A DNA stretch of 63,390 nucleotides, the filler included, from Acidimicrobiia bacterium (GTDB taxonomy: Bacteria; Actinomycetota; Acidimicrobiia; Spongiisociales; JAHEDJ01), in the NCBI GenBank assembly GCA_029210695.1. It is 18 parts of 18 records of this genome, joined end to end, with 100 filler letters (N's around TTAATTAATTAA, not from the genome) between each part and the next. Parts side by side here need not be neighbours in the genome. Positions count along the whole stretch, not along the records: positions 9,033 to 13,226 come from JARGFH010000120.1; 17 more parts are not named here. One strand, given 5' to 3'. The notes under the pieces were generated by a model, which worked only from the letters and a program-made list of their open reading frames with translations, did not search any database and was not told the DNA's origin. The stretch's first letter is position 1, and the number at the start of each line of letters is the position of its first letter. A program made the translations under genes and the position numbers. This document shows positions 1 through 55,047 of this stretch, piece by piece.

Positions 1-15
1 GCAACGCTCAGACCC

Positions 16-87
16 ATCGATATCGACAAATCGAGCGCACGAACGAGCATTCCGTCGAGTGTCCCCGAACGGCACTTCCGAGTGCGG
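16..87 (-). repeat. GTGCCG-family cassette-boundary repeat, copy A
   Basis: Minus strand CCGCACTCGGAAGTGCCGTTCGGGGACACTCGACGGAATGCTCGTT...GTCGATATCG, directly after the serpin stop. Confidence 0.7.
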
Positions 88-2265: not shown

Positions 2266-2703
2266 GCACCGGTCAGCAATCGGGCGTAGAAACGAGCACC
2301 TGGCCAGACTGAGCCGCTCGGCACTTCCGGGCGCTACTGACCTGCGGGATGCTGCTCGTCGGGCCGGGCGCTCGACAACGCTCGGGGCGGTGAGCGATCT
2401 GGCGGTAGGGCATACCTAGATTCACGGCTGAACTCATCGCTTCACGCCCAGAGACTTGGACACGAGCCGCCGTCGCATCCCACATGTGGCACGTGATTGA
2501 ACGCAACTCTTCCGTGGCTGACCTCGCGACATTGCCGCTCGGTCACATCGCAACCGGCCAGGGTCAGGCGAACCTTGGACGATCGCGGCTCACGAGTACC
2601 AACCCGAAGACTGATATCGCGCGAGGCCCAGCGCCGATCACCAAATCCCGAGCAGAAACGAGCATCTGGCCGAGTGCGCGGGATCGGCACTGCTGCGCTC
2701 GGG
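2266..2703 (-). repeat. GTGCCG-family repeat, copies B (about 2266-2335) and C (about 2631-2703)
   Basis: GAAGTGCCGAGC...GTGCTCGTTTCT and CAGTGCCGATCCCGCGCACTCGGCCAGATGCTCGTTTCTGCTCGGGATTTGGTGATCGG. Confidence 0.7.
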
Positions 2704-2891: not shown

Positions 2892-3884
2892 ATGCTGTTG
2901 CGAGGTTCAGCGATCATCGTGCTGACTGCCTTGCTCACCACTGCATGCGGCCGGGTTGAATCCGGCTCGGTGAGCACAGGGGTGGTGGATCAACCAGTCG
3001 CTCTGGACACGACCACCTCGTCCGTCCCGGCCACGACATCGTCATTGGCGATCACGACATCAACTACCTCTCCGACCACTCCCGAGGGCTATCCGGCCGA
3101 CGAGTCGGGCCGTCGTCTCGTAGTCGCCACCGATGCATCAACGACATACGTGTGCGGGTTCGTCATCTTTCCCGATTCGAAGCCACCCGAGGCGATCACA
3201 GAACCCACGGTCGACGTGGATGGTCTGCTTGCAGGAGCGGGCCCGCCCGGGGTTGATCAGGACAGCTTCTACGAGATCTACGACTGGGTGGTTGTCTCCG
3301 AGACCGCAAAGACGGTGACGCTTCTCGGTTACCCGAAGCACCCGGACTGGCCGGACCTCTACCCGGGTCAGTACGGCTTCGTTGCTTTCGTCCACCGTGA
3401 CGACCAGTGGGAGGCTCTGAGTTCCGCTTGGTGTGACCCAACCGTGTCACAGCTCGACGCTCCAACCGGAGCAAGCAGCACGATTCCCCTCTGGCCCGAC
3501 GAGTATCTCCAGGCAGTGATCGGACGCGACTGGACGACGATCAACAACTATGTACTTGATGAGACTTGGAGTGGGCTCCTGCTCCCCCCTAATCCCGCTG
3601 ATTGGAAACTCGACCACCTTGCCGGGCCGGATCCGACCTCAACTCGATTGCCGATCCTGATCCACGAACGAAACTGCGCGAGCGGCCAGGTCCCTTCTGA
3701 CAGGGACATTGACGTCCTGGTGACCGAAACGGAGGGCGGCCTCGCTCTCACCGTGCTCGTCGCGTCGAGCGGCGGTCTGTGTCCCGAGAATCCTTGGTAT
3801 CCGATCACCGTCGTACTCCCGACACCGCTTGGCGATACCCGGTTGTTTGATGGCCGGACACTTCCGGTGGCTCCCCGGAATTAG
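2892..3884 (+). CDS. Hypothetical lipoprotein with Ser/Thr-rich linker
   Basis: Signal peptide with TTAC lipobox, T/S-rich stalk, C-terminal ERNCASG...CPENP motif. Confidence 0.75.
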   Translation: MLLRGSAIIVLTALLTTACGRVESGSVSTGVVDQPVALDTTTSSVPATTSSLAITTSTTSPTTPEGYPADESGRRLVVATDASTTYVCGFVIFPDSKPPEAITEPTVDVDGLLAGAGPPGVDQDSFYEIYDWVVVSETAKTVTLLGYPKHPDWPDLYPGQYGFVAFVHRDDQWEALSSAWCDPTVSQLDAPTGASSTIPLWPDEYLQAVIGRDWTTINNYVLDETWSGLLLPPNPADWKLDHLAGPDPTSTRLPILIHERNCASGQVPSDRDIDVLVTETEGGLALTVLVASSGGLCPENPWYPITVVLPTPLGDTRLFDGRTLPVAPRN

Positions 3885-3898: not shown

Positions 3899-3966
3899 CC
3901 ATCCCAGATCGCCGAATATGGAGTGGAAGCGCCCACTCCGCCGAGTGCCCCATATCCTCACTTCGG
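3899..3966 (-). repeat. GTGCCG-family repeat, copy D (divergent core)
   Basis: GAAGTGAGGATATGGGGCACTCGGCGGAGTGGGCGCTT...GGCGATCTGG. Confidence 0.55.
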
Positions 3967-4027
3967 TGATTGGAGAAGGGCAGCATGGAACCGTCGACCA
4001 GAGCGCAGGTTGGGGCCTTGGCAATGC

Positions 4028-4381
4028 TTATGTCGGTGGAGTGAGCGTTATGCCCATTGAATCGGCGCCTGGAGCAGGTCGCCGTGGCTCACGTACACCG
4101 GCAAGAGGGTCGTCAGGAGGCTCGAGAAACACCGGAAGGCCAGTCTCGTTCTCCCATACCTCTTCGAGCAGGTGCACTTGCTCAGAGACTCCCAACGAGA
4201 TGTTGAGCGGATAGGACTGAAGGAGGGTTCGCTCACTACTACATCGAGGACAACGCACGGCAATCCGAATGTGAGGCATTTCAAAAACCAGCAAATCACG
4301 GATCCGGAGGATTAGGTACTCGGGGTTGGTGGTATCGCCACAGGATTGACATGTCGAAGGTCTGGCCGGTTGAGCTTCCAC
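4028..4381 (-). CDS. Small Zn-ribbon-like protein, probably 5' truncated by IS3
   Basis: CQSC and CPRC pairs; IS end begins at 4390. Confidence 0.4.
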   Translation of the reverse strand: MEAQPARPSTCQSCGDTTNPEYLILRIRDLLVFEMPHIRIAVRCPRCSSERTLLQSYPLNISLGVSEQVHLLEEVWENETGLPVFLEPPDDPLAGVREPRRPAPGADSMGITLTPPT

Positions 4382-4389
4382 CCTACGAA

Positions 4390-4466
4390 TGAGTCGCCCT
4401 GGGTTTGATGGAGACCGTTTTGTTTGGTTTCCTTGCTTACCCTGTGGTGGCTAGTTGAGCGTAGTG
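4390..4466. mobile_element. IS3-family (IS6110/IS51-like) terminus, variant
   Basis: TGAGTCGCCCTGGGTTTGATGGAGAC resembles the IS6110 IR TGAACCGCCCCGG...GGAGACTC. Confidence 0.7.
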
Positions 4467-4599
4467 NNNNNNNNNNNNNNNNNNNNNNNNNNNNNNNNNN
4501 NNNNNNNNNNTTAATTAATTAANNNNNNNNNNNNNNNNNNNNNNNNNNNNNNNNNNNNNNNNNNNNTAGCCGGATATGCCTTCTGCCACCGCAGCAAGG

Positions 4600-4820
4600 G
4601 CGAAGTCGATGATGCGTTCCTCGGGCGTCACACCCCGAACGGTACCGCATCAGACTACGGCCCCGTCGACCCGCTATCACCGGTCATACTCCCGCGCCGA
4701 TCTGGTCGAGTCGACCGGTAGCAACCTCCGGGAGGAACACAGCCGACCCACCCCACAACCGCAGCCTCCGTTTCGCCGGCTACAAGGAGCGCCTACGACG
4801 GAGAGTCGGCGGCACCACCG
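4600..4820 (-). repeat. Conserved ~220 bp leader plus start of gene MTPEERIIDFAL (copy 1; copy 2 at 28403-28627)
   Basis: Long aligned homology between the two contig ends; the ORF start differs mostly at synonymous sites. Confidence 0.8.
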
Positions 4821-5019
4821 TACGGGTACCCAACGGTCCCCCCCTCGGTCAGAGCCAAGTTGGGAGCTATTCACGGTGGACTGGTGCGGACGGCCATGGA
4901 CAGTGCTTGGACAATTGTCGATCAGAACGCCCATGTGGTGAAGACAACCCCGGACGTTCCTGGTTACCGGCCAATTCTCACCCCTCTGGGAGCAACCGAC
5001 GCACCACGCCATTCAGCCC

Positions 5020-5090
5020 AATCCGCACATATCGGGTCAATCCCGAGCAATATCCCGCCCTACGCGATGGCGCCCCGCTATGGCACCTCG
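5020..5090 (-). repeat. GTGCCG-family repeat, copy E
   Basis: GAGGTGCCATAG...GGGATATTGCTCGGGATTGACCCGATATGTGCG, downstream of the NYN gene. Confidence 0.5.
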
Positions 5091-5138
5091 TTTTGGTGCC
5101 TTGTACTGGATGCCCTCGAAGTGGCGGTTGCAGATTGG

Positions 5139-5744
5139 TCAGCGTGTCGTGTAGTCGGTGTTGTCCTGGATGGAGGTGTAGGCGTGATGGTCGATCCAGT
5201 GACAGTAGAGGCGTGAGTTCTTGAGACGGAGTCGGCGTCCTTGACCGGTTGGTGGCCTCCACGCGGCAACCTCAGCGGTTGGCTGATTGAGTCGAATGAC
5301 TTCCTCGAGGGCGGGCAGCAGGTCAGTGTCGCCCGACATGAGTACTCCGACGTCGTACTCGCCGCGTACGGCCATCATGGCGAAGTCGAGGGCGATCTGG
5401 ACGTCGATGCCCTTCTCCTCCGGTTTGGAGGCTGGATAGTCCCGGGGGTAGCGAAGCGGCCGCGCCGTCACGGCGACGTGGGGGAGTTTGTTCCAAGCGG
5501 CGATCTGGCGTCTCGCTGCTCCGTAGCCTTTCGGGTCTTTGGCGCTGCTAGGTAGGCCGCGGTACATGCGGACCTGGTGCAATACCCGGTCGGATTCGCC
5601 GCTGAGCCTGATGATGAGTGCTCCGAGAGCCGTCGGGTGGATTTGACCGGCCCAGTGCGGATCAGTCAGGTGGTCATGGAAGGCGTTGCGGGCGGCGCGA
5701 TAGGCGTTCTGGTAGTCGACAAAGACCACCACCCGTTCCGCCAT
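5139..5744 (-). CDS. NYN-domain (LabA/DUF88, PIN-like) protein
   Basis: VFVDYQN, EKGIDVQIALD, SGDTDLLP motifs. Confidence 0.9.
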   Translation of the reverse strand: MAERVVVFVDYQNAYRAARNAFHDHLTDPHWAGQIHPTALGALIIRLSGESDRVLHQVRMYRGLPSSAKDPKGYGAARRQIAAWNKLPHVAVTARPLRYPRDYPASKPEEKGIDVQIALDFAMMAVRGEYDVGVLMSGDTDLLPALEEVIRLNQPTAEVAAWRPPTGQGRRLRLKNSRLYCHWIDHHAYTSIQDNTDYTTR

Positions 5745-6254: not shown

Positions 6255-6311
6255 AGGTTGAGGGCCTAGTGCCCTAAATGGGCGTGGGGGTTCAAGTCCC
6301 CCCTCCGACAC
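6255..6311 (+). other. att site: 3' half of tRNA-Leu(GAG)
   Basis: TTGAGGG anticodon loop, long variable arm GCCC-TAAAT-GGGC, T arm GGGGGTTCAAGTCCCCC; D-arm and 5' acceptor strand absent. Confidence 0.85.
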
Positions 6312-7941
6312 GAACCCCAAGTACATGGGGTTCTCCTGCGCCTACGTGTACCCGCCCGTCGGGGTAGTGGGTGAGGTTGACACCGAGTTCTTCGTAGATG
6401 GCCCGCTTGTCGGCCGGGTCGGCATCGGCCAGTACCGCCACGATGTCGCGTAGCTGGGCGACGAGTGCCTTGATTTCGTTCTCGGTGAGTTTGCGTGGGG
6501 TGGGTTTGCGGCCGAGTTCTCGTTCGAGGTTTCTGCGTTCTCGTTCGACTTCGGCGATCCAGGTGGCGGCGACGGTGATGTCGCTGTCGTGTTCGAGGAG
6601 TGCCCGGTACTTGGCGAGTTTGGTGTCGCATTCTTTGAGCTGGCGGCGCAGCTGAAGGATGCGACCTTGGTCGTCGTCTGGGGCGGCCCCGCTGGCGGCG
6701 GCCAGTGCCTGGGTGGTGGTATCGATGTGGTCATCGTCGAAGAGGCCGCCGATCCAGGTATCGAGTCCCGGCACGATGGCGTCCTCACGCACGTAGATGG
6801 TCTTGGCGTGTTGTTTCTCCCTCACGGCGTATTCGGTGGGGAACTTGCAGCGGTAGTACGGCTTGCCGTTGTTCCATGATCCTTGCATTCTGCGGTCACA
6901 GAGAGCGCAGCGGACCAGCCCTGAGAGCACGTAGGTGTGTTTGGTGCGATTCCGGCGGAGCGCGGCACGTTGGGAGCCCGCAAATATGTCCTGGGCCGCA
7001 TTGAAGGTCTCGACGGAGATGATGGCGGCATGGGTCGGATCCTCAGACCAGACCCATTGGCTGGGGTCGTTCCATCGCATCTTGGTGTCATGGCCGAGGG
7101 CGACGTCATTCACGTCAATGAGGATCTCGTGGCGGCCCTGGCGGTTCCATACCTGGTACCCGGTGTAACGGGGATTCTTGAGAATGGCCCGAACCGCCGA
7201 CTTCGACCAGGCGCCTCCACCGCTCGAGCGGTGACGGTTGCGAGCCGGATCATGTCCGGACGGGGAGAGGATCCCATCTGCGGTGAGTCTCTCGGCGATG
7301 GCGAACAGGCCCCGGCCGGCAAGGAACTCGGTGAAGATCCTCTGCACCACCGGACCCGCTTTGGCGTCGGGTTCGAGCCGCCGGAGCTGTTGGCCAGCGG
7401 CAGCCTTGGCAGGGTTGGGGTGCGGGCCAGCGTCGGTCAACACGTAGCCGTAGGGTGGCCTTCCGCCGAGGAATCGGCCTTCGATGGCTGCCTGGGCGGC
7501 CATCGCGGTGCGGACCCTGGTTTTGATGCGGTTGCGTTCGCCTTTGCTCATGCCACCGTACAGGTTCATGACCATTTCGTGAGCGTCCGATCCTGGGTCG
7601 ACCGCTCCGCCAACTTCAGGCACCCACAATCCGATCCCGTAGTGGACGAAGACGGGGAAGGTGAGTCCGAACTGGTTGCCATAGAACGCCCGTTGGGGTT
7701 CGCCGATCACCACACTGTCAAATCCCCGGTCCGGGTCGGCGAGAGCTTGAAGGAGTTTGGTGGCTTCTGGCCTTCGCGACCAGGGCAAGGACCGGGACTG
7801 GCCGATGTCGAAGAATTCGGTGATGATTTCGCCGCCGGCCGGGTCGATGAGTTGGCGGGATCGGGCGAGTTGCCAGTTGCGCGATGATTCGGGGTCTTGT
7901 TGGTCTTCGGTGGAGACCCTGCCGTAGAACGCGAATCGCAT
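6292..7941 (-). CDS. Large serine recombinase (integrase)
   Basis: YGRVSTEDQQ catalytic Ser, GRPPYGY, recombinase domain, Zn ribbon LSGLVRCALC, coiled coil; stop lies within the tRNA fragment. Confidence 0.95.
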   Translation of the reverse strand: MRFAFYGRVSTEDQQDPESSRNWQLARSRQLIDPAGGEIITEFFDIGQSRSLPWSRRPEATKLLQALADPDRGFDSVVIGEPQRAFYGNQFGLTFPVFVHYGIGLWVPEVGGAVDPGSDAHEMVMNLYGGMSKGERNRIKTRVRTAMAAQAAIEGRFLGGRPPYGYVLTDAGPHPNPAKAAAGQQLRRLEPDAKAGPVVQRIFTEFLAGRGLFAIAERLTADGILSPSGHDPARNRHRSSGGGAWSKSAVRAILKNPRYTGYQVWNRQGRHEILIDVNDVALGHDTKMRWNDPSQWVWSEDPTHAAIISVETFNAAQDIFAGSQRAALRRNRTKHTYVLSGLVRCALCDRRMQGSWNNGKPYYRCKFPTEYAVREKQHAKTIYVREDAIVPGLDTWIGGLFDDDHIDTTTQALAAASGAAPDDDQGRILQLRRQLKECDTKLAKYRALLEHDSDITVAATWIAEVERERRNLERELGRKPTPRKLTENEIKALVAQLRDIVAVLADADPADKRAIYEELGVNLTHYPDGRVHVGAGEPHVLGVRVGGGT

Positions 7942-9347: not shown

Positions 9348-9570
9348 CCCGCTCCTCGAAGTGCCGTTCGGGGACGGGTGGTTGTGAGGTGCGTTATGGG
9401 GTCCCCGTATCAAATGGACGAAACACAACAGTTTCGTGAGTCCTCTTCGTTACGCTGAGTGGCCGGCACCGCGCTCGCCGACGTGCCGATATTGAGCGGT
9501 TCCAGATACATGGGCGGTTTCGCTCGGGATCAGGGTGATATGCGCTATTCGGTCTGGACGTGCCGACTCT
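9348..9570 (+). repeat. GTGCCG-family repeat, copies F (core 9361), G (core 9483) and partial G2 (core 9560)
   Basis: CCGCTCCTCGAAGTGCCGTTCGGGGAC...GTGCGTTATGG; GACGTGCCGATATTGAGC...GCTCGGGATCAGGGTGATATGCG. Confidence 0.7.
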
Positions 9571-9648: not shown

Positions 9649-10257
9649 TCACTTGTCAGCTATTGGTTGGCACGGTGCCACTGCACCTGTCGCAACAGCG
9701 AAATCGCCCTTGGTTGAAAAGCCGCCGACCGCGTTCTCGCCGTCTTGGGTACCGATCTGTTCCAGCTCTTTGTCAGTCAGGGGTTCGACCGACCAGGTGA
9801 GAACAAAGGTCTCACCGTCGCGGACAGTGTCGGGGGCCAGGGTCACCGAGATGTGTTGCTCGCTGATGCTGACCATCATGTTGGTCTCTCGGTCCACCTC
9901 TGTGTATCGGCCCGGGGCGCAGGTCTGTAGGGCGGGAAGGTAGGTGATGTCAGCGTTGATGCCATGTTCCTTCAACGCTCGCTCAAGACCCGCAGCGTCT
10001 TCGGGCCGGTTGATCTGGACGTGGACCTCGCCGGCGTTGCCCTCACCCACGGAGTAGGCAGGGGTTGAGCCGAGACCGGGCACCATAAGAATGGCCCCAA
10101 TCGCGGCAGCCACTGCGATGCCTCGCAGGACATACCGGAAAGCACCGAGGCGTTGCGACCGTTGCTCATGGCGACGTCCGGCCGCACCGGGTTCGGCTAC
10201 GTAGTCACGCAGTTCAGCCAGGAGCCGCTTTTCGAAAGAGTCGAGTTGGGTACTCAT
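9649..10257 (-). CDS. Putative membrane anti-sigma factor
   Basis: FEKRLLAEL N-terminus, one TM helix, ATGA overlap with the ECF sigma gene. Confidence 0.7.
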   Translation of the reverse strand: MSTQLDSFEKRLLAELRDYVAEPGAAGRRHEQRSQRLGAFRYVLRGIAVAAAIGAILMVPGLGSTPAYSVGEGNAGEVHVQINRPEDAAGLERALKEHGINADITYLPALQTCAPGRYTEVDRETNMMVSISEQHISVTLAPDTVRDGETFVLTWSVEPLTDKELEQIGTQDGENAVGGFSTKGDFAVATGAVAPCQPIADK

Positions 10258-10829
10258 GAGATCACCTCGATGATGCTTGGGACTGTTTGGGTCAAACGCC
10301 GACGGGCGCGGTGGTATCGCACCCGAGCGTTGTTGGGCGAAATGCCGAGGGCTTGCGCCGCCTCGTCGAGTCTGAGCCCGTCCACGGCGACGAGTTCAAC
10401 GACAGCACGCTGCCCTTCAGGCAGGTCCGCCAGTGCCTCGACCACCGCGCGAGCTTTACGCTCCGCATCGATCCGGGCAACCAGGTGTTCGGTAGCTTCG
10501 TCGTCGAGCCACTCACGAGCACGGAATCTGGCGGTGGCCCGCGCTCGTCGATAAGCGGAACGGTGATGGCTGGCAACGACATGGCGAGCGATGCCGTACA
10601 GCCAGCCAGCAGGGCTCCCCAAATCGGGCTTATACCGATGCGAACTGTCAATCGCAGCCAAGAACACGTCGGCGGTGAGGTCAGCTGCAGTCTCCGGGTC
10701 GGCAGTCCTACGAGCAACAAACCGCTGCACCTGCTCGAGGTGCTGGCGGTAAAACGCCTCGAGAGCGTCCGGGTCATGCCCGATGTCGGCAACAGCGAAG
10801 GCTGGCGTCCCTCCTACTGCGGGTGTCAT
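10254..10829 (-). CDS. ECF sigma-70 factor
   Basis: AADLTADVF, WLYGIARH, region 4 EAAQALGIS...RYHRARRRL. Confidence 0.92.
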   Translation of the reverse strand: MTPAVGGTPAFAVADIGHDPDALEAFYRQHLEQVQRFVARRTADPETAADLTADVFLAAIDSSHRYKPDLGSPAGWLYGIARHVVASHHRSAYRRARATARFRAREWLDDEATEHLVARIDAERKARAVVEALADLPEGQRAVVELVAVDGLRLDEAAQALGISPNNARVRYHRARRRLTQTVPSIIEVIS

Positions 10830-10991
10830 ATCTACTCTTCGCCGATAGGGACACAGACGTTACACCCCCAAAGGTCGTCACAATCAGCGATGGAAACGGT
10901 CCCCTTCCTGTACACGGGTTCACAACCGGGAGTCACCCGAGTCCTTCCACACGTCTAGCGTCGGCGCTCGCCGCGTCTTCAACCCAATCGA

Positions 10992-11055
10992 TACGTGCCG
11001 ATACTGAGCACTCGGCGGAATGTGCGTTCTTGTCCCCGATTTGGCGATATGGGCG
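10992..11055 (+). repeat. GTGCCG-family repeat, copy H
   Basis: TACGTGCCGATACTGAGCACTCGGCGGAATGTGCGTTCTTGTCCCCGATTTGGCGATATGG. Confidence 0.75.
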
Positions 11056-11073
11056 CTGGACCGAGGGCTTCTG

Positions 11074-12696: not shown

Positions 12697-12807
12697 GCAA
12701 CTTGAACGCTACCTACGGCCGCCCGGTTCCCCAACGCATTCATCGACCATCGACCAGACCACCACCAGTGACCGCACTGAAGCGAGGCGCCGCACGCCTA
12801 CGTGCCT

Positions 12808-13226
12808 GATAGGGCTGTAGGGGCGTTGCGGGAGTTGGTTCCGTAACGTTGCAGGGGTCCCGGTGGGTGTCGCTCTCGACGTGCCTGCCGCCCGTGAGGG
12901 TTGGCTTTCGAGCGAGCTGTCGTGCTCGCCGGGATCTCTGCTGGCGGTGTGGCTCGAAACAGGCGTAGCACGCAGGACCGTATCAGGAGTGCCCACCGTC
13001 AGATCCACCGACCCCCGAACCAGAGGAGGTGTGTCATGTCGGTGATGATTGGAATCGACCCCGCGAAGGGTTCTCATGCCGCGGCGGCGGTGAACGGTAG
13101 CGAGGAGGCGGTGGCGGAGCTCGAGGTCCGTGCCAGCCGCCGTCAGACCAGCGAGCTGTTGGCCTGGGCGGAGCAGTTCCCACAGCGAAAGTGGGCAATC
13201 GAGTCCGCCAACGGGCACGGCTATCT
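12808..13226 (+). mobile_element. IS110-family element: left non-coding end and transposase 5' part (ATG 13036)
   Basis: MSVMIGIDPAKGSH...WAIE DEDD-type N-terminus, GGAGG RBS, ~230 bp non-coding leader. Confidence 0.88.
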
Positions 13227-13546: not shown

Positions 13547-13829
13547 CCGACGGCTGGAACCTAACGGTCACGCCAGTCCTAGTGGAGATCCCTCCCGGAT
13601 ACCCGACCACACCCCGGACAACATCTGCGTGACCGCCGACCTCCGCCTCGCCAACGGAGCGACACCAGCGAACACGATGGGAATCCGTGAGATAGCCGAC
13701 CGTTCGTGGCTGCAATTCTCCTATCACATCGAAGCCGCCGACTGGCGGCCGCAGCCGGATCTCTCCCAATCGGACACGTTGGTGACGTACCTGGTCGGAG
13801 CTTTACATCGCCTCGAGGAGGTGAACTGA
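13546..13829 (+). pseudogene. Prokaryotic E2/UBC (family E-like) fragment, 5' truncated and frameshifted
   Basis: PDGWN...IPPGYPTTP/PDNICV..LRLANG..W.QFS.H....WRP...L.TYL; one C missing in the C-run near 13612-13615. Confidence 0.7.
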
Positions 13830-15487
13830 TGGCTGGTCTACGATTCATCGACGACCTCGATCACCGCCGCGTGGCTCAGCACCTGTTCTCAGGGCCGGGG
13901 GAGCGGTTCGCGTTCCTGATTTGTCGCTGGCAGCCAACCACCGAAGGTCCGTCACTGGTCGTGGTGGATGCGACCCTCGTCGACCCGGCCGACGTTGCCG
14001 TCGATGATGACGGGTGGAGCATGTCCGACCGTGCCCTCGACAACGTGGTGAACACAGCGGCCACGACGGGCCTGGTGCTCGTCGAAGCCCACAATCACAG
14101 CCTCGGGCCACCGGGCTTCTCAGCGACGGATCGTGCTGGATTGGAGCCGTTCGCCAACTACGTCCTCGACTCGTTCCGTGACCGACCTTACGGCGCCACC
14201 GTCTGGGCGGACGACATGGTGTACGGGGAGTGGTTCAGCCGCGCCGGGGACAAGACCGAAACCGGCGTCATCGATCGGATCGTTCTCGCTGGTGCGACCC
14301 TTCAGGCGTTGACCGCACCCAATGCTGGCATGCGGCTCGACCAAGAGATTACCGATCGGCAACTGGCGGTCTTCGGCGTAACCGGCCAGCAAACCCTCGG
14401 GCGGCTACGCGTGGGCCTCGTCGGGCTCGGTGGCACCGGCTCCCACATGGCTCAGAATCTCGCCTACCTTGGGGTCCGAGAGTTCGTCCTCGTGGACGGT
14501 GACGCGGTTGAGGTCTCCAACCTCAACCGCCTGGTCACCGCCGAACGCGGCGACGTGGCGGCGCCGAAGGTTGTCACCGCCGAACGCACCATCCACACCA
14601 TCGCACCAGACGCGGTCGTGCAAGGCGTCGAGGCAGCGGTCAGAGCTGAAGACGACCACGTCGCACGCCGGCTCGCCGATGTGGACCTGATCATCGGCTG
14701 CGTCGACAACGACGGTCCCCGCCTACTCCTCAACCGTCTCGCCGTGGCCCACCAGATGCCCTATCTCGATGTCGCTACCGGCATCACCGTCGACGGCGGC
14801 CGAACCGTCGAAGCCGGCAGACGCGTCGCCTTCACAGCCCCCGGTGGGCCCTGTCTTGGATGCACCCACGAACTCGACGTCAACGAGGTGGGCGACTACT
14901 TCCTCACAGAGGACGAGCGCCAACGTACCCAACACCACGGTTACCTTGCCGGCGACGACACGCCAGAGCTCGGCGCCCGCGGCGGAACGATGCCGACTGT
15001 GCTCCACCAGGTCACAAGCTTGATCGTGGAACACTCCGATATCGTTGGCCTCGATAACGACTTCGGCGAGGCAACTCCCGTGGAGCTTCAGGTGCTCGCG
15101 CCCGTACGTACGCTGATCGAAAAGCTCACGATCTTGCACCATGCTGCAACGATCGGCAACCCGGCAGAACAGGCCCGGCTCGCTCGTCACTATTACGACG
15201 TCTGGTGCCTCCTCAGCGATGAAGAGACCGTGGCCGCACTATCGATCTCGCCGGCCGACGTGCTCGTCCGCGAAGTGGCGACGTTCACCGAGGCAGCGGG
15301 TCTTGAGACCACAAGGCGCCCGCGGTCGGGCTATGCAGACTCGCCGGCATTCAACGTTGATACGAACGAGGCAGTTCGCGCCGCATTCAACGAAGTGGTG
15401 ATAGATCAGCTCGTATGGCCAAGCGCGCCCAGGCCAACGTTCGAAGAGTGCTGCGCAGCAATCCACACTCGCTCGACTCTTCTCTGA
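13829..15487 (+). CDS. Chimeric JAB-like plus ThiF/E1 protein ending in an AbiEii-like C-terminal half
   Basis: E...HNH...FS..D JAB motif; GLGGTGS, DGDAVEVSNLNR, GCVD, CLGC (ThiF); from about 14965 ELGARGG, RTLIEK, ARHYYD (AbiEii). Confidence 0.75.
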   Translation: MAGLRFIDDLDHRRVAQHLFSGPGERFAFLICRWQPTTEGPSLVVVDATLVDPADVAVDDDGWSMSDRALDNVVNTAATTGLVLVEAHNHSLGPPGFSATDRAGLEPFANYVLDSFRDRPYGATVWADDMVYGEWFSRAGDKTETGVIDRIVLAGATLQALTAPNAGMRLDQEITDRQLAVFGVTGQQTLGRLRVGLVGLGGTGSHMAQNLAYLGVREFVLVDGDAVEVSNLNRLVTAERGDVAAPKVVTAERTIHTIAPDAVVQGVEAAVRAEDDHVARRLADVDLIIGCVDNDGPRLLLNRLAVAHQMPYLDVATGITVDGGRTVEAGRRVAFTAPGGPCLGCTHELDVNEVGDYFLTEDERQRTQHHGYLAGDDTPELGARGGTMPTVLHQVTSLIVEHSDIVGLDNDFGEATPVELQVLAPVRTLIEKLTILHHAATIGNPAEQARLARHYYDVWCLLSDEETVAALSISPADVLVREVATFTEAAGLETTRRPRSGYADSPAFNVDTNEAVRAAFNEVVIDQLVWPSAPRPTFEECCAAIHTRSTLL

Positions 15488-15703: not shown

Positions 15704-16309
15704 ATGCCTGAGGCCTACCTGGATGCACAGACCCAAGGGATCGGAGAGGTGATTCGCAGCCGAAGGCTTTTCCAGGTGCCGGATCATCAGCGAGACTTCG
15801 CTTGGACAAACGACGAAGTAGAGCAGCTCTTCAGTGACGTGGTCCGAGCTATTCAGGACACTGCCCCCGAGTACTTCCTCGGTCTCATCGTCTTAGTAGC
15901 ACCAGGCGAAGGCGATGCGTGGCAGATCCTCGATGGCCAACAGCGGTTGGCGACCACGACCATGGTGTACGCCGCCACACGAACGTGGCTTCGGGAGCGA
16001 GGCTTCGATACCGACGCCCACGACATACAGCGCGAATACATCGGCTACCGGTCGCTTGGAGAGGATGACGATCTCCCGAGGCTGACCTTGACCAGGGCAT
16101 ACGCCGAACACGGCCCATCGTCCATGGCTGCTCGGAAGAGCCCGGTAGCTCCTGCCGTTCAGGATCCTGCATGGATCCTCGTCATACCCCCACTTGACAG
16201 TGCCAGAGCACTGCGTGGCGCACCACTCCGACGAACGACCCGGCCATTGGGCGAAGCTGGAGGATCAGCCGGACTCGGGCTCGGAGTATGTCAACCCATG
16301 ATGGAGTGA
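15704..16309 (+). pseudogene. DUF262 (GmrSD-like) N-terminal fragment
   Basis: VPDHQRDFAW, YFLG, ILDGQQRL motifs; recognisable homology stops near 16095. Confidence 0.8.
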
Positions 16310-17451: not shown

Positions 17452-17527
17452 GCGCCTGCAGTTTCTTTGACATAACTCCATCCTCGCTTCCAAGGTAAAG
17501 AGTCTCCAAGAATCCCAGGGCGATACA
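17452..17527 (-). mobile_element. IS3-family left end (copies 42316-42390, 54760-54835; variant 21420-21495)
   Basis: TGTATCGCCCTGGGATTCTTGGAGACTC IR then RBS and MSKKLQA; resembles the 13327-type IR. Confidence 0.85.
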
Positions 17528-21319: not shown

Positions 21320-21495
21320 NNNNNNNNNNNNNNNNNNNNNNNNNNNNNNNNNNNNNNNNNNNNTTAATTAATTAANNNNNNNNNNNNNNNNNNNNNNNNN
21401 NNNNNNNNNNNNNNNNNNNTCCCATCACCCTGATAATCCATAACTCCATCCTCGCTTCCAAGCTCCGGAGTCTCCAACTCTCCCAGGGCGATTCA

Positions 21496-25602: not shown

Positions 25603-25675
25603 GCGCAGGAGGGTGCCGATACTGAGCACTTCCCGAAATGCTCGTTATGGGGCGAGAACAGGGCGATATGGGTCG
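25603..25675 (+). repeat. GTGCCG-family repeat, copy I
   Basis: GGTGCCGATACTGAGCACTTCCCGAAATGCTCGTTATGGGGCGAGAACAGGGCGATATGG. Confidence 0.75.
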
Positions 25676-25712
25676 GGTGAGTGGCGCACCCCTAGCAGAA
25701 TGGGCGACGGCC

Positions 25713-25727: not shown

Positions 25728-26150
25728 ATGCCTGTTGTATCGATTCGATTCTCAGACGAGCCGTTACACCAACGACTCAAGGACAGCGCCCACCGGCGTG
25801 ACATCGGGGTCTCGACCCTGGCCGAACGGTTGATCAATGAGGGGTTGCGCATGGACGCTCACCCATTGGTGGTATTCCGAGACGGACCATCCGGTCGCCG
25901 ACCCGTCCTCGTCGGTGGACCCGAGGTAGCCGACGTCATCGGTGCCATCGTCGATGGCGATGTTCCTGCAGACCAGCGTCGATCCCGAGCCGCAGAGCTC
26001 TTGGCCGTCACAGAACCTCTGATCGATGCGGCACTGGCCTACTACGCCGAATTCACCGAAGAGATCGATGCCGACCTTGCGACCCGGGCTCAGCTCGCCG
26101 ACGATGTCGAGGCGTTGTGGCGTCGTCAACGAGCGCTGCTCGGGAGATGA
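25728..26150 (+). CDS. Antitoxin (RHH plus DUF433-like)
   Basis: VSIRF..L...L, EGLRMDAHP.V.FRDGPSGRR..L.GGP.V; overlaps the toxin gene. Confidence 0.8.
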   Translation: MPVVSIRFSDEPLHQRLKDSAHRRDIGVSTLAERLINEGLRMDAHPLVVFRDGPSGRRPVLVGGPEVADVIGAIVDGDVPADQRRSRAAELLAVTEPLIDAALAYYAEFTEEIDADLATRAQLADDVEALWRRQRALLGR

Positions 26151-26503
26151 AGCTCCTTCTCGACGAGATGCATGCCCCCAGCATTGCTGACGCCCTCACC
26201 ACACAAGGCTGGGACGTCGTCGCGGTAGCGGCTGTGGCCGCTCTGCGAGGAGCCTCGGATGCGGACCTGCTCGATCACGCCACCAGCCGCGAACGTGCCT
26301 TGGTCACAGAGAACATCGTCGACTTCTCACCGCTCGCGCTCCAATGGGCCAGTGAGGGCAGAAGCCACGCCGGGTTGATCTTCACGAATCCGAAACGGTT
26401 CAATCGGGCGTCGCTTGCCTACCCGGGGAACCTCATCGGAGCACTGGGCCGGTTCCTCGACAACCCTCCCATCGACGGCGCTTCGTGGACCTGGTGGCTG
26501 TGA
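26147..26503 (+). CDS. DUF5615 / VapC45-like PIN toxin
   Basis: MKLLLDEM, SD..LL..A, LVTEN..DF, H.GLI. Confidence 0.85.
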   Translation: MKLLLDEMHAPSIADALTTQGWDVVAVAAVAALRGASDADLLDHATSRERALVTENIVDFSPLALQWASEGRSHAGLIFTNPKRFNRASLAYPGNLIGALGRFLDNPPIDGASWTWWL

Positions 26504-26521: not shown

Positions 26522-26585
26522 TGCTCCTCGACGTGCCGTTCGGCTCGGTTCTCGGGGGCCTTACTGCTCTGTATCAGATGGTATA
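26522..26585 (+). repeat. GTGCCG-family repeat, copy J
   Basis: TGCTCCTCGACGTGCCGTTCGG directly after the toxin stop. Confidence 0.55.
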
Positions 26586-28727: not shown

Positions 28728-28800
28728 CCCACGATCACCTCGGTCACGGCCGAGCGGCACCAACGCGCCCAAAAACCCCCTTGACAACCAAACAGGCATC
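28728..28800 (+). mobile_element. IS110-family right end
   Basis: CCCCCTTGACAACCAAACAGGCATC, shared with 54551-54590 on the minus strand. Confidence 0.7.
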
Positions 28801-28855
28801 GATATCGAGCACTCGGCACAATGCTCGTTATGGCGAAGTATTTGGTGATCGGCGT
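28801..28855 (+). repeat. GTGCCG-family repeat, copy L (right part only, after IS110)
   Basis: GATATCGAGCACTCGGCACAATGCTCGTTATGG...TTTGGTGATCGG. Confidence 0.75.
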
Positions 28856-28915
28856 GCTCCATCCGACGAGCTCGCCGGACACACCGAACGCTGCCTGCGG
28901 GTCGGTGTTGCCGGG

Positions 28916-29722
28916 TCAGGCGCCGGTGAGTCTGCGTGCGTGTTCCTTGCCGTATTCGACGAAGGCGATAGTGGCCTCCACGCTTCCTGGGCGTGGAGGG
29001 TCATCCCAAGGGACTGGCCGGTCAGCCCGCGCCTGCGCGATGAGATTCCGCCATGCCGGCGCGAGCTCCCCCCTTCCCCATTCGAGGGCAGCCAGCTTCG
29101 AGGTCACCTCTCCGGTCTCGAGGGTGTACAGCATGCGGCACATGGATTCCACTGCGTACCGCTGCGCCCAGATCATGTCGAAACTGGTCCAGCTCAGCAG
29201 ATCCTCAAGGAAGTTCCCGATCAGGGTGCGCATCCTGTCGCGCAGCAGGTCGGCGGGAACCTCACACGCAAAGGTCCGCGGCTCGGGCCCGATCAGCGGA
29301 ACGCTGCGCTCACGGAGTATCCATCGGGTGTCTGCGACGTTGCAGTGGGGTGACCATTGCATCTCCCGCCAGCCCCGATCCACATACAGCCACTCCCCGT
29401 CGAGCCGCTCCAGCGTCCCGAGATCTGCCTGCGGTGCGTAGCTGCCTTCCAGATTCGTCACCCAATGCCCCGGACGCGTCGGGATCTCGTCGTGCAGCCG
29501 ACGGAGGGCTCGTTCCTGCTCACCGGTGACCGGCTCCTTCGTCACAACGATGAAGTCGCAGTCGCTGGAGAGATCGCCGGCTCCGAGAGCGAACGACCCC
29601 ACGACGTAACCGCCGACGAGATCGTCGGCGAGAATCGACTGCACGCAGTCGATCAACTCCGCCAACAAGCCGTTCAACTCCGAAAAGGGCGTCGGATCCT
29701 TGGCGGATCTCGCGTTATTCAC
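28916..29722 (-). CDS. Nucleotidyltransferase with AadA C-terminal-like (DUF4111) domain
   Basis: GSFALG....SDCDFIV, CRMLYTLETG.V.SK..A. Confidence 0.85.
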   Translation of the reverse strand: MNNARSAKDPTPFSELNGLLAELIDCVQSILADDLVGGYVVGSFALGAGDLSSDCDFIVVTKEPVTGEQERALRRLHDEIPTRPGHWVTNLEGSYAPQADLGTLERLDGEWLYVDRGWREMQWSPHCNVADTRWILRERSVPLIGPEPRTFACEVPADLLRDRMRTLIGNFLEDLLSWTSFDMIWAQRYAVESMCRMLYTLETGEVTSKLAALEWGRGELAPAWRNLIAQARADRPVPWDDPPRPGSVEATIAFVEYGKEHARRLTGA

Positions 29723-29939
29723 TCAAGCCCTCCTCGGCTCCACTTGGGACCAATGATCGCATTCATCTCCTGCATGGTGTTCGGTGAGCAGCAACGTTCT
29801 CGTCGAGCATCCACGGCTTCCAGCATTCGCCCACCACAGATGCGGCAACGATGCGTTGGCGCAGGCGAACAGGCCGGGAGCTGGCACAACTCGTACGTAG
29901 GCCCGCCCCAGCGGGACCCACCTCCCCGGTCTGGGAGCG

Positions 29940-30371
29940 CTAGGTCTCGCTCGCTACCACCGGATCAGGGCTGCGCTCAGCTGGGTCCGTCCGCCAGGTC
30001 CAGGCAAGACCGATGATCGCCAGCAGGGCGAGGATCTCGACGACGAAGAACCAGATGTCGTCGAGGTCGCCCGGTGGATTGGCCACCATAGACGCGATCG
30101 CCACGACGGCAAGAGCGGCGTTGGCCCAGCGGGCTGCGGTGGAAGGCAACACTCGGTTCAACACGATCATCGAGATGAACAGGCTCAGCACGATCCCGGA
30201 TGCAAGCAGCAGTCCTTCGGCAACTTCCATCGACATGAGTTCTTCGATCCAGCCCGGACGAGCGAACTCGTGGATGTCACGGAAGAGCATGTTGAACAAG
30301 ACGAAGATCCAGAGTGAGGACAGCACTCCCCGACGGTCTGCGTTGATGCGGTTGCTGATGGTGTCCTCCAC
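29940..30371 (-). CDS. DUF6326-like four-TM membrane protein
   Basis: LSSLWIFVLFNMLFRDIHE, RWAN, AWTW. Confidence 0.75.
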   Translation of the reverse strand: MEDTISNRINADRRGVLSSLWIFVLFNMLFRDIHEFARPGWIEELMSMEVAEGLLLASGIVLSLFISMIVLNRVLPSTAARWANAALAVVAIASMVANPPGDLDDIWFFVVEILALLAIIGLAWTWRTDPAERSPDPVVASET

Positions 30372-30662
30372 GGTCGGCTCCTCCTGGGACAGATTGACAC
30401 TGTGAGTAGGTGAGACACCGTAACAAACATACGGTGTAAGTAGTTGCCGAAGGCCCGCGAAGAGACGCCTCTTGAATGGTCCTACCGACGCGGGATTACC
30501 CAACAGAGACATCTCGGAATCAGAAGCGCTCCAGTATCCAGTCGGCGATCGTCTTGGGAACCACCGGCCATCGTCTCCTCGATGAGCCCATATTCTGAAA
30601 CGGCGCCCGTCGTCGCGTTCTGGAACAGGTGATTGAGTCCGGCGAGTTCCGGCAATTCTGAA

Positions 30663-30737
30663 CCGCACCTCGAAGTGCCGTTCGGCGCTATTCGCTGTCG
30701 CGGGCGATATGGCGCGGGAACAGGGCGATCGGTGCGG
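30663..30737 (+). repeat. GTGCCG-family repeat, copy M
   Basis: CCGCACCTCGAAGTGCCGTTCGG...GGCGATATGGCGCGGGAACAGGGCGATCGG. Confidence 0.75.
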
Positions 30738-30738
30738 T

Positions 30739-31086
30739 TCAGATCTCAAGGAGCGTGGCATCGAACCAGATGTCCTCATGGCCCGGCGCGGTCAGGAACC
30801 GCCACCCAGGCGGAAGAGCGAGATACGGAATAGCCTCCGGCGCCCACTCTCCGACGTGCTCGACGTGGAGTGGCACGAAGAAATCGGGATCATCGCTGTA
30901 TTCGCCACGCCATAGATACCAACCGTTGGTGTCGCCCTCGGGAGGATGTCGAAGACCGTGCAGCGGCACGGTCTCGCTGCGCACATTGGCTGCGACACCA
31001 AGTTTCGTCCCGGCCGCCGGTGTCTCCGGGTCGGCGGCGAAGCGCCGACATACCTCAAGCTGAGTGGTTTCAGATTCCATGTTCAA
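30739..31086 (-). CDS. Imm33-like immunity protein
   Basis: GLRHPPEGDT.GWY.W.GE...DFF.PLH..H...YLALPPGWRF. Confidence 0.7.
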   Translation of the reverse strand: MNMESETTQLEVCRRFAADPETPAAGTKLGVAANVRSETVPLHGLRHPPEGDTNGWYLWRGEYSDDPDFFVPLHVEHVGEWAPEAIPYLALPPGWRFLTAPGHEDIWFDATLLEI

Positions 31087-31114
31087 CCTCGAAAGGAATC
31101 ATGCCAGATCCAAC

Positions 31115-31172
31115 TGCTCCTCGACGTGGTCGCGCTTGACGAGCGATATGGCACAAGATCAGGTGATCGGCT
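31115..31172 (+). repeat. GTGCCG-family repeat, copy M2 (shortened)
   Basis: TGCTCCTCGACGTGGTCG...GCGATATGGCACAAGATCAGGTGATCGG; contains the stop codon of the 31159 gene. Confidence 0.55.
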
Positions 31173-31998
31173 CTGTTTGCGTTGTAGGGGGTGGAGCGAG
31201 AAGCTGATCGATCGCCATCGCGAACTGCTCGAAGTCATCGATGTTGCTGACAGCCTCGCGGTACCGGTGGAAGGCTTGGCGATAGTGGCCAGTCAGGATC
31301 TCAACTTCTGGCAGCGGTTCGCATGCCCTGATCGACATGTGGCTCCGGCCATACCCATCATGGTCAACGGCGAGATCCACAATCACATCACCGCTGTCCA
31401 AGATCTCTTGGAGACGCGGGCGGGTTTCGCCACGTAACCGTTCGACCAGTCTCGTAGGTCGATCCTCCCCGGCCAGGCCGAAGATGGTGATCTCTGACGA
31501 GGCGTCACCCCCTACCGCGAGAGCGAGCGCTATCAGATCGGAGGAGTTGCGAAGCTCGAAGAAGCCTGCCTTTGCCCGGTGGGCCCTCTCCCAACTGGTG
31601 GGCTCGGGCCGTATCGGAACCACAGAACGAGCAGGCACGAAACCTCGATCCACGTCGCTGAGTGATCCAGGTTCAGCTTCGACGTCGTACTCCCAATCGA
31701 TCATCACGATGTCGGCCGGTTCGATACTCAGGAGCCTTGCCGCATCATCCCGGTAGTAGCACGGGATTGCGAAGCGCGATCTCCCGGCCGTGACAGCCCA
31801 GGCGAGCGCACGCCAAACCGCCAAAGCCTCTCCATCGTTGTTGTTGATGGCAAAGCGGAAGTACGGCGACTGCAGCCGATCTTCCGAATAGACCTCATAG
31901 AGACCGGGCCAGAGAACGTCGCCCGCCAGCTCAACTGCACAGTGGTAGGTATGCAGGTCACCACTCTGCTCGTGGCCAAAGTCGAGGAAGTCATCCAC
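31159..31998 (-). CDS. Hypothetical protein
   Basis: 279 aa ORF with natural composition. Confidence 0.6.
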   Translation of the reverse strand: MDDFLDFGHEQSGDLHTYHCAVELAGDVLWPGLYEVYSEDRLQSPYFRFAINNNDGEALAVWRALAWAVTAGRSRFAIPCYYRDDAARLLSIEPADIVMIDWEYDVEAEPGSLSDVDRGFVPARSVVPIRPEPTSWERAHRAKAGFFELRNSSDLIALALAVGGDASSEITIFGLAGEDRPTRLVERLRGETRPRLQEILDSGDVIVDLAVDHDGYGRSHMSIRACEPLPEVEILTGHYRQAFHRYREAVSNIDDFEQFAMAIDQLLAPPPTTQTEPIT

Positions 31999-32227
31999 CC
32001 GCCCATAATGCCACGCCGGCTCCTTGCTTCCAGCGTGTCCAATCCGAGCCGAACCGGCAGGGTGATGATGTGGGGGCCTGGTCGAGCCACCGCCGTTGTT
32101 GGTGGTTGGTTACGGTTGGGTGGTCTCNNNNNNNNNNNNNNNNNNNNNNNNNNNNNNNNNNNNNNNNNNNNTTAATTAATTAANNNNNNNNNNNNNNNNN
32201 NNNNNNNNNNNNNNNNNNNNNNNNNNN

Positions 32228-37178: not shown

Positions 37179-37250
37179 TCGGGGGTGGTGTAATCGGTAA
37201 CACAGCAGGTTCTGGTCCTGTCATTGAGGGTTCGAGTCCTTCCCCCCGAG
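37179..37250 (+). tRNA. tRNA-Gln(CTG)
   Basis: Cloverleaf: TCGGGGG/CCCCCGA acceptor, TTCTGGT anticodon loop, GGTTCGAGTCC. Confidence 0.95.
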
Positions 37251-37273
37251 CGAGCCCTGTGAAGGGCAACAAC

Positions 37274-37349
37274 GGCCCCGTCGTCTAGAGGCCTAGGACG
37301 CCGGCCTCTCAAGCCGGTAACGCCAGTTCGAATCTGGTCGGGGCTACCA
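37274..37349 (+). tRNA. tRNA-Glu(CTC)
   Basis: GGCCCCG/CGGGGCT acceptor, CTCTCAA loop, GTTCGAATC, encoded CCA. Confidence 0.95.
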
Positions 37350-42315: not shown

Positions 42316-42490
42316 TGTATCGCCCTGGGATTCTTGGAGACTCTTTACCTTGGAAGCGAGGATGGAGTTATGTCAAAGAAACTGCAGGCGNNNNNNNNNN
42401 NNNNNNNNNNNNNNNNNNNNNNNNNNNNNNNNNNTTAATTAATTAANNNNNNNNNNNNNNNNNNNNNNNNNNNNNNNNNNNNNNNNNNNN

Positions 42491-45695: not shown

Positions 45696-45872
45696 NNNNN
45701 NNNNNNNNNNNNNNNNNNNNNNNNNNNNNNNNNNNNNNNTTAATTAATTAANNNNNNNNNNNNNNNNNNNNNNNNNNNNNNNNNNNNNNNNNNNNCCGCA
45801 TTATCCCAGGTCAGAGGGCATTTTCCTCATCAATCCCACCCACCGGACACCAAACCGGGCGGTGGATCCAGG

Positions 45873-48877: not shown

Positions 48878-49123
48878 TGAACCGCCCTGGGTTTGATGGA
48901 GACTCGGTTGTTTGGTTTCCAAGTCATCCGGTAGTGGTCAGTTGAGCGTAGNNNNNNNNNNNNNNNNNNNNNNNNNNNNNNNNNNNNNNNNNNNNTTAAT
49001 TAATTAANNNNNNNNNNNNNNNNNNNNNNNNNNNNNNNNNNNNNNNNNNNNTTCTCCCAGGTCAGAAGGCATTTTCTATGTCAATCCCAACCGTCAGACA
49101 CCGATCAGACCGGTGGATCCAGG

Positions 49124-53856: not shown

Positions 53857-53859
53857 GCG

Positions 53860-54481: not shown

Positions 54482-54494
54482 GGCGTGGCTTCTG

Positions 54495-54550
54495 AACCCC
54501 TATCACCAGATCGAGTACATGAACGCCCATTCACCCGAGTATCAGGGATC
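54495..54550 (-). repeat. GTGCCG-family repeat, copy O (right part only, after IS110)
   Basis: GATCCCTGATACTCGGGTGAATGGGCGTTCATG...GATCTGGTGATAGG. Confidence 0.65.
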
Positions 54551-54759
54551 GATGCCTGTTTGGTTGTCAAGGGGGTTTTTGGGCGCGTTTGGTCTTCCGG
54601 CTGGGCCGGGGGCTGGTGGTTGGGCGTAGGCTGGGGGTTGGCCCGGGGTGGCTGAGCGGAAGAGCCGGCGTTTCAGGATGCAAAGCCGGTCACGCACGCG
54701 ACAGAGACGTTCCTGGGTGCCCCCCGGGCCCTAACGCGATTGTTGGTCTGAGACGAGAT
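54551..54759 (-). mobile_element. IS110-family right end: transposase tail and structured 3' non-coding region
   Basis: NLVSDQQSR*, then GGCCCGGGG...CCCCGGGCC stem, then CTTGACAACCAAACAGGCATC. Confidence 0.7.
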
Positions 54760-55047
54760 TGTATCGCCCTGGGATTCTTGGAGACTCTTTACCTTGGAAG
54801 CGAGGATGGAGTTATGTCAAAGAAACTGCAGGCGCNNNNNNNNNNNNNNNNNNNNNNNNNNNNNNNNNNNNNNNNNNNNTTAATTAATTAANNNNNNNNN
54901 NNNNNNNNNNNNNNNNNNNNNNNNNNNNNNNNNNNTCCTATTACGAGGCGCGACCTCCATCACTCGACGGGGAGGGCGAGATCTCCCTTCGAGGGCTGGT
55001 GAAGGTCGTGCTAGCGATCTATCACTTTTCGTACTATTCTAGGATTC

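Follow-up and report, generated by a model that had tools for sequence, protein, structure and literature searches.

A draft genome of an Acidimicrobiia bacterium holds ends of an IS110 insertion sequence beside halves of a repeated intergenic motif, which raises the question whether the element enters this motif at one position and what directs it there. Some elements of the IS1111 group target attC sites. A preliminary description of the locus had proposed that an IS110 lineage is programmed against the motif, which it took for a cassette boundary. In this study, we show a constant insertion spot inside the repeated motif, both in this genome and in roughly a dozen relatives. We consider it very probable that a lineage of IS110, guided by an RNA, targets a single position within an intergenic motif that is widespread. 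It would be a natural bridge-RNA-guided IS110 outside the proteobacterial models, for which a draft assembly suffices to read all four guides.

The window, i.e. the whole stretch of 63,390 nt that was analysed, consists of 18 contigs of 2.7-4.5 kb, ordered by falling size and separated by linkers of the structure N44-TTAATTAATTAA-N44. From the linkers, positions 13226 and 28728 are contig ends, as had been supposed. Overlaps of 74-77 nt are common to many contig ends, a pattern to be expected of a de Bruijn assembler, which breaks off at repeats. IS110 is present in the window as fragments only, with one left junction on contig c3 (9033-13226) and two right junctions on contigs c8 (28728-32127) and c15 (52006-54835), never with both ends of one copy. 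IS110 insertion accounts for several contig breaks of the assembly. The features are listed in the table.

Features of the IS110 ends, the putative guide RNA and the motif copies in the window (positions along the whole stretch; rc, reverse complement)
Feature	Position	Strand	Sequence or evidence
IS-free motif copy	5..75	-	
IS-free motif copy	2620..2694	-	
IS-free motif copy	9479..9550	+	
IS-free motif copy H	10991..11060	+	..ACGTGC|CGATACTGAGCAC..
IS-free motif copy	25609..25680	+	
Motif left arm (left target, ends ..ACGTGC)	12790..12805	+	aligns with ..[N]GTGC arm of IS-free copies
CT dinucleotide, left junction (putative core, by IS621 analogy)	12806..12807	+	CT before GATAG in 16/16
IS110 left end, bridge-RNA-like ncRNA	12808..13035	+	consensus fold and guide matches
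LTG (loop 1, 5' side)	12879-12886		ACGTGCCT; = left flank 12800-12807, 8/8
Inner hairpin of first loop	12887-12905	+	
RTG (loop 1, 3' side)	12906-12912		TTTCGAG, rc CTCGAAA; CT + CGA opening c8/c15 flanks, 5/5
LDG (loop 2, 5' side)	12957-12966		AAACAGGCGT; right tip 28790-28799 AAACAGGCAT, 9/10
RDG (loop 2, 3' side)	12981-12987		TATCAGG, rc CCTGATA; 12805-12811, 7/7
IS110 DEDD recombinase, first 63 codons	13036..13226	+	PF01548; contig end cuts gene
IS110 right end, last 72 nt	28728..28799	+	TTGACA 28781-28786; terminal AT 28798-28799
Motif right arm beside c8 right end	28800..28865	+	nhmmer, IS-free-only profile, E=3.8e-9, from flank base 1
Motif right arm beside second right end	54487..54551	-	E=1.1e-5, in register
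Second IS110 copy, last ~9 codons and right end	54552..54759	-	95% to L020 over 197 nt
IS-X start, interrupting second IS110 copy	54760..54835	+	identical 75-76 nt at 42316-42390, rc 17452-17527

Positions 12790-12810 read CCGCACGCCTACGTGCCTGAT, followed by AGGGCTGTAGGGG, i.e. a left half-site and then the IS110 left end, and two right ends (..CTTGACAACCAAACAGGCATC) end at 28800 (plus strand) and 54551 (minus strand) with GAT behind them, all as first described. The sequence ..CTTGACAACCAAACAGGCAT opens c8 and occurs on the minus strand of c15; both right ends are identical over 42 bases (28762-28803 = rc 54548-54589, BLAST E=1e-15). Aligned with IS-free copy H (10995-11060) and with further copies, the flanks behind both right ends fall in register. 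Joining the left and right halves gives a site close to copy H, as the preliminary description held. Its boundaries had to be redrawn: by analogy to IS621 and from the guide RNA they are better placed at GTGC-CT|GATAGG and GGC-AT|CGAT. With these boundaries the AT of the second right junction lies at 54553-54552 (minus strand). The T that had been set in brackets in the rebuilt site stands for a real and systematic difference, as the rebuilt site is two bases longer than the IS-free copies.

Among relatives of the element the junctions are equally constant. All 16 left junctions (window and 15 loci) read CT|GATAG and 12 of them read exactly GTGCCTGATAG; odd sequences before the CT are GGGC in L009, GTGT in L013 and GCAT in L012, and L001 has GTGCCT-CT. 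The 21 right junctions end with GGCAT (14), GGCCT (6) or GGTGC (L024 only), and 19 of the right flanks open with CG[A/T/C]T. The c8 right end has the ..CTTGACAnnCAAACAGGC[A/C]T terminus seen in 20/21 right ends, and a perfect -35 hexamer TTGACA lies 12 nt before the tip in 20/21. Work on IS621 suggests that this hexamer would serve as the -35 box of a circle-junction promoter. Neither the window nor the loci contained tandem or circle junctions.

Do these ends stem from one element? At the end of c3, a 228-nt non-coding stretch is followed by an ORF that runs off the contig. This ORF (13036-13224) matches Pfam DEDD_Tnp_IS110 (PF01548) over profile positions 1-58 of 155 (27.7 bits, E=2.8e-6); the score is below the 29-bit cut-off because just 63 aa are present. 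The 63-aa fragment is 100% identical to the N-terminus of two proteins of 340-341 aa, P0001 and P0004. P0001 (341 aa) has both IS110 domains, PF01548 (75.6 bits) and the C-terminal PF02371 with its conserved serine (64.3 bits). PF02371 is absent from the window, where c3 stops at codon 63 and the other copy, on c15, keeps only the last ~9 codons. The C-terminus encoded on c15 reads ..LVSDQQSR* and its P0001 counterpart ..HLQADQQPR*.

Scanning a species-representative genome collection with P0001 gave 80 loci, with a tblastn match over the whole query in about a dozen. L001-L024 are close relatives, mostly with 72-92% identity (about 55% in L016 and L017), and their hosts are nearly all Acidimicrobiia/Actinomycetota MAGs; L008, L015 and L019 come from bins labelled Acidobacteria or Gemmatimonadales. 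A plasmid collection held no close relatives, the best match having 24% coverage at 67% identity. Our literature search found no paper treating both IS110 and Acidimicrobiia; supplements of the papers cited here may list the lineage.

Full-length copies measure 1430-1437 nt, the dinucleotide at each tip counted. Like c3, they start with (CT)GATAGGnCTGTAGGGG..; their stop codon is followed by about 180 nt of conserved non-coding DNA, and they end with ..CGCGCCCAAAACACCCCTTGACAnnCAAACAGGC[A/C]T like c8 and c15. All five full-length Acidimicrobiia MAG relatives that were tested match c3 by BLAST over positions 1-420 (78-91%); their final ~200 nt match c15 (82-95%) and their final 34-64 nt match c8 (81-95%). 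The left and right ends thus belong to one element family and not, as might have been objected to the preliminary description, to unrelated elements. The left end of c3 is nearest to L001 (91%, as compared to 78% to L020) and the right end of c15 is nearest to L020 (95%), so the genome holds at least two sub-lineages.

Terminal inverted repeats are absent: in the full copies of L001 and L003, the 25 longest inverted pairs include none between the first and the last ~15 nt. The left end has 228 nt (12808-13035) as compared to 179 nt in the non-coding right end, and the guides lie in the left end, which makes this an IS110-group and not an IS1111 element. All features of the IS110 group that could be tested here were found, except a shared core in unoccupied targets.

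Decayed relatives occur as well. L014:3990-5047 is without the guide RNA and the first 51 codons, foreign DNA replaces the left end inside the target-binding loop of L011:~3900-5201, and in L018:4001-4558 the recombinase gene is broken after residue 212. Just past the stop codon (54640-54730, minus strand), an alignment of 19 right ends reveals a conserved structured element with an outer stem GGCCCGGGGGGC/GCCACCCCGGGCC and two inner hairpins; four pairs show compensatory change. Rfam gave no family at gathering score for the structured right end; the best match was ncrMT1302 with 20.8 bits against 45, on the opposite strand. As it is located upstream of TTGACA, the structured element would sit in the 3' UTR of the recombinase and not in a bridge RNA.

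The motif spans ~70 nt and is intergenic; both this genome and related ones contain many copies of it. In an initial profile search of the window and the loci, 33 copies were detected, 14 of which abut a right end and 19 of which are IS-free. To avoid circularity, the profile was rebuilt from 18 IS-free copies only. With this profile 13/21 right flanks match at E<=0.01, 12 of them from flank base 1, as compared to 37/2100 random 90-mers from the same loci; the insertions do not lie mostly outside the motif. Among the eight right flanks missed at this threshold, L005, L007 and L015 are motif-like by eye, L008 and L009 are not. L009 rebuilds to AAGGGC-CT-CGAG, which appears to be a site outside the motif and agrees with the guides. 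The motif itself is a real multi-copy site across many Acidimicrobiia genomes, since a mobile element independently homes in on it; in this the preliminary description was right.

Further observations concern the nature of the motif. Its right arm was considered as an encoded peptide (M.V...DLVIG) and this was rejected, as the ORFs range from 6 to >126 aa and 8/32 copies are without a start. A consensus fold of 18 IS-free copies had no pairs (RNAalifold, one strand), i.e. no hairpin or palindrome was found. No Phage_integrase match, as a tyrosine integrase (IntI) would give, was found among the 221 ORFs of this 63-kb window of small contigs, which contains two large serine recombinases (6295-7941 and 55048-56469). 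Paralogous left flanks are kept up to exactly ..GTGC and then diverge: L003:150-259 and 3661-3771 share 111 nt (91%), and L012:8337-8929 and 3176-3768 share 593 nt (96%) up to GTGC. The IS-free paralogues in L003 and L012 read GTGC|CG... This suggests that the motif may mark a boundary where neighbouring DNA is exchanged, which fits the idea of a cassette boundary.

What probably directs the element to one position of the motif is encoded in its left end. Fourteen left ends were aligned and folded together. The RNA has a 5' hairpin, a long stem, a first internal loop with an inner hairpin and a second stem with a second internal loop. The consensus has 62 pairs, with 97.5% of the cells paired in the 14 copies. 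Compensatory changes are found in 11/62 pairs, as compared to 2.8+/-1.4 in column shuffles (0/500 reach 11) and to at most 5 when partners were slid by 1-3 columns. A scan of the left end against Rfam gave no family at gathering score, the best matches at E<=10 being noise.

The two loops hold four words that correspond to the junctions. ACGTGC+CT of the left flank equals the guide at 12879-12886, and the reverse complement of RTG begins CTCGA, i.e. CT plus c8 28800-28802. When the left end was shuffled 100,000 times, the four guide words never occurred in order, and 395 shuffles held the 8-mer alone. The guides are almost invariant across relatives except for one base, A[N]GUGCCU. This variable LTG base equals the flank base in 10/15 elements against a permutation mean of 4.3 (p=0.0017); it differs in L002, L004, L010, L012 and L020. 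RTG is nearly invariant, hence uninformative for covariation; in L006 and L007 it is altered to CUA or CUG and their right flanks still begin with CG, which, like the five mismatched LTG bases, speaks against guidance. A bridge-RNA-like fold, target-loop guides that spell the flanks and one guide base that covaries with the flank directly support the proposal that the lineage is programmed.

Two further sets of sites were noted in the window. The exact 9-mer GTGCCTCGA predicted by the guides is found unoccupied at 10433-10441 (plus strand), inside an ECF sigma-factor gene (10257-10829, minus strand), with two upstream bases that mismatch the guide. A left-arm sub-type, GC[T/A]CCTCGA[A/C]GTGCCGTTCGG, is present at 9351-9379, 26523-26551 and 30665-30693 (plus strand). 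It matches the RNA ..GCUCUCGA[N]GUGCC over 13-14 bases, beyond the 8-nt guide, and is able to form a short hairpin with GTGCCG in the loop.

Pairing rules have been described for the bridge RNA of IS621 (PMC11208160, PMC11208158). At least two copies of an IS110-group insertion sequence of ~1.43 kb are present in the window as fragments; the lineage is common in Acidimicrobiia MAGs, and following these rules its 228-nt left end would encode a bridge RNA. The first loop is predicted to bind the target. Its 5' side has A[N]GUGC-CU and its 3' side has UUUCGA[G/A]; the former spells the left flank plus CT, and the latter, reverse-complemented, spells CT plus the CGA that opens the right flank. The second loop is predicted to bind the donor; here, AAACAGGCGU and UAUCAGG spell the right tip and the left tip of the element itself. 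The guided DEDD/serine recombinase would then insert the element at a single phosphodiester position, located between ..GTGC and CG[A/T/C]T... As in IS621, the RNA would presumably be transcribed, a circular intermediate with a junction promoter would form, and the strand-exchange chemistry would be alike. A promoter rebuilt across the circle junction is described in PMC11208160.

Apart from a two-base discrepancy at the junctions, the element behaves as is normal for the IS110 family. The guides specify A[N]GTGC-CT-CGA, whereas 17/18 aligned IS-free copies read GTGC|CG.T and are without CT. The only IS-free copy with CT is L014:6489 (GTGC-CT-CGTT), and the IS copy of L014 is the one without guide RNA. 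In L003 and L012, where an occupied left flank has an IS-free paralogue, this paralogue is without CT as well. As conservative recombination keeps length, the excess of two bases can be read in two ways.

According to the first, to which we give somewhat less than an even chance, an IS621-like CT core is common to donor and target; the element enters only the minority of copies with GTGC-CT-CG.T, and the common CT-less copies are no targets. The core-pairing bases are in the canonical place in all four guides (LTG ..CU, RDG ..AG, LDG ..GU, and in RTG AG in the window copy and L001, the AA of most relatives being a mismatch to the first core base there). A CT core with a flexible first base is known for IS621 (PMC11208158), one IS-free copy with CT does exist (L014:6489), and for the insertion outside the motif in L009 the rebuilt site is AAGGGC-CT-CGA, as predicted from the guides. 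This is opposed by the absence of CT from 17/18 IS-free copies and from 2/2 IS-free paralogues of occupied flanks. Moreover, the left junction of L012, GGAA-GCAT-CT-GATAGG, is underivable from such a core, and the CTCT of L001 requires an extra slippage event.

The second reading, which we hold to be rather unlikely, does without a shared core. The element itself would have CT as its left and [A/C]T as its right terminus and would be pasted between GTGC and CG of the CT-less motif, by way of a 4-nt staggered overlap of GTGC (target) with GC[A/C]T (donor), and the extra guide bases would pair only with the products. This accounts for the two-base excess of all occupied sites over the IS-free copies. 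IS621 is cleaved on the top strand at T9|A10 and on the bottom strand at 9*|10*, with 1 pairing 14* (PMC11208158), from which we infer a 4-nt stagger. With such a stagger a minority of reciprocal junctions is predicted, and these are exactly the two odd ones: the L012 left junction is flank-GGAA + GCAT + CTGATAGG, and the L024 right junction is AAACAG + GTGC + CGAT. However, both are also explicable by short gene conversion with another motif copy, and there is one case of each. The CTCT of L001 would be an entry into a CT-bearing variant (1/16 left junctions as compared to 1/18 IS-free copies), and top-strand-only insertion has been proposed (10.1101/2025.10.25.684509). At the circle junction TTGACA would be 17 nt instead of 15 nt from TAGGGC, which speaks weakly in favour of this reading, as the -10 is poor. 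On the other hand, a core-less insertion is at odds with the rule of a shared core and with the contact of the protein to T9 in IS621 (PMC11208158), a position at which the target would have C. The proposals of single-strand or top-strand transfer and of half-match recombination in recent preprints leave the length argument standing.

The circle junction is predicted to read ..AAACAGGC[A/C]T-GATAGG with a shared core and ..AAACAGGC[A/C]T-CTGATAGG without. An interrupted gene whose frame is restored with or without CT was looked for and no insertion in a convincing gene was found; the ORFs spanning insertions look like off-frame high-GC artefacts. Among the 80 loci and the window there were no orthologous empty sites, only the two paralogous left flanks. 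If core-less sites are truly entered, the shared-core rule that limits the targeting of bridge recombinases is not universal.

Both readings presuppose that an RNA guides the recombinase. That instead the protein reads the motif or a DNA structure, the guide-like matches being an incidental mimicry of the target by the element ends, we regard as very improbable. The right tip AGGC[A/C]TCGAT does resemble the motif AGGTGCCGAT, and in ISPpu10 a stem-loop in the target is described as a second layer of specificity (10.64898/2026.03.19.712850). Mimicry is contradicted by the covariation of the variable guide base with the flank, by the four words on the expected sides of two covariation-supported loops, and by the missing consensus fold on the motif strand tested. 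That the right arm of the motif is part of a longer mobile element and not a pre-existing target is hardly credible and already contradicted: the arm does follow the right end in 13/21 cases, but 18 IS-free copies join the left arm directly to the right arm without IS sequence, arms beside an IS are as variable as those of IS-free copies, whereas the IS tip hardly varies, and L009 and L008 have the same IS tip without a match to the motif profile.

The RNA-guided element targeting the motif has much in common with IS621 of E. coli as presented in PMC11208160 and PMC11208158: a recombinase with a DEDD and, as seen in P0001, a Tnp_20 domain, the absence of terminal inverted repeats, and a left end that is longer than the right and encodes an RNA with two internal loops. 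In both, the 5' sides of the loops correspond to LT/LD plus core and the 3' sides are complementary to core plus RT/RD, there is CT or [A/C]T at both tips and a -35 box in the right end, and the target is a repeated extragenic site, which is REP for IS621 (PMC11208160). It differs in belonging to another recombinase lineage, although the ~23-31% identity found refers to distant IS110 relatives from proteobacteria and other phyla and not to IS621 itself. Moreover, its target is a non-palindromic actinobacterial motif of ~70 nt instead of REP, its right end contains a long stretch (~180 nt) that is conserved and structured, and its IS-free target copies are without a CT core. Entry into a repeated extragenic site by means of a left-end bridge RNA is already known from IS621 and REP, and the Acidimicrobiia lineage would be a further case.

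Other elements share single traits. All reported insertions of ISPpu10 from Pseudomonas putida are in copies of one conserved intergenic sequence (10.64898/2026.03.19.712850); its target, however, has a GC-rich stem-loop, whereas the Acidimicrobiia motif gave no consensus fold. IS4321/IS5075 of the IS1111 group are reported to enter one position of a multi-copy boundary sequence, the terminal repeats of the Tn21 family (cited in PMC11208160). In contrast to the element described here, the guide RNA of IS1111 is located in a long right end, and subterminal inverted repeats are present (PMC11208160).

Which right end belongs to the left end of c3? The preliminary description had suggested that c3 may join c8. 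Contig c3 reaches 419 nt into the element before it breaks, and its left end is therefore unique in the assembly. Contig c8 starts 72 nt before the tip, as a shared final k-mer would give if another copy had an identical right end, and the contig-end overlaps imply more IS110 copies outside the window. As the c15 copy is of the other sub-lineage and interrupted by another multi-copy repeat, IS-X, c8 is the only candidate partner of c3 within the window. Its 72 nt of right end are non-diagnostic, since they span a hypervariable hairpin and the invariant tip. A weak point against the join is that L001, the nearest relative of c3, has the tip GGCCT and c8 has GGCAT.

On c15 the reading frame of IS110 continues up to 54760, and the copy is cut at 54759/54760 by IS-X, nine codons before the IS110 stop (TAG, 54733-54731), which is followed by the 179 nt of non-coding right end (54730-54552). 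We considered that the right ends might stem from a different IS with terminal inverted repeats, as there is an adjacent ATG on c15, and rejected this because the ATG belongs to the inserted IS-X. IS-X begins with TGTATCGCCC and has its ATG at 54815 (MSKKLQA..). Its first 75-76 nt also close contig c11 and open c5, and an 86% variant is found at 21439-21495. On c11, IS-X adjoins an IS256-type (Transposase_mut) gene (41170-42303, minus strand).

Across the window the small contigs have the character of accessory genes. They encode parts of toxin-antitoxin systems (MazF, 53914-54243; DUF5615/PIN, 26117-26500; AbiEii-ThiF, 13706-15484), an Imm33-like gene (30742-31086), an AadA_C-like nucleotidyltransferase (28919-29722), GmrSD_N (15704-16306), a serpin (101-1543) and two tRNAs (37179-37346). 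The actinobacterial sRNA Ms_IGR-7 of Rfam matches 45116-45234 (minus strand), barely at gathering score (45.8 against 45), and this match overlaps a repeat common to 45796-45872 and 49052-49128.
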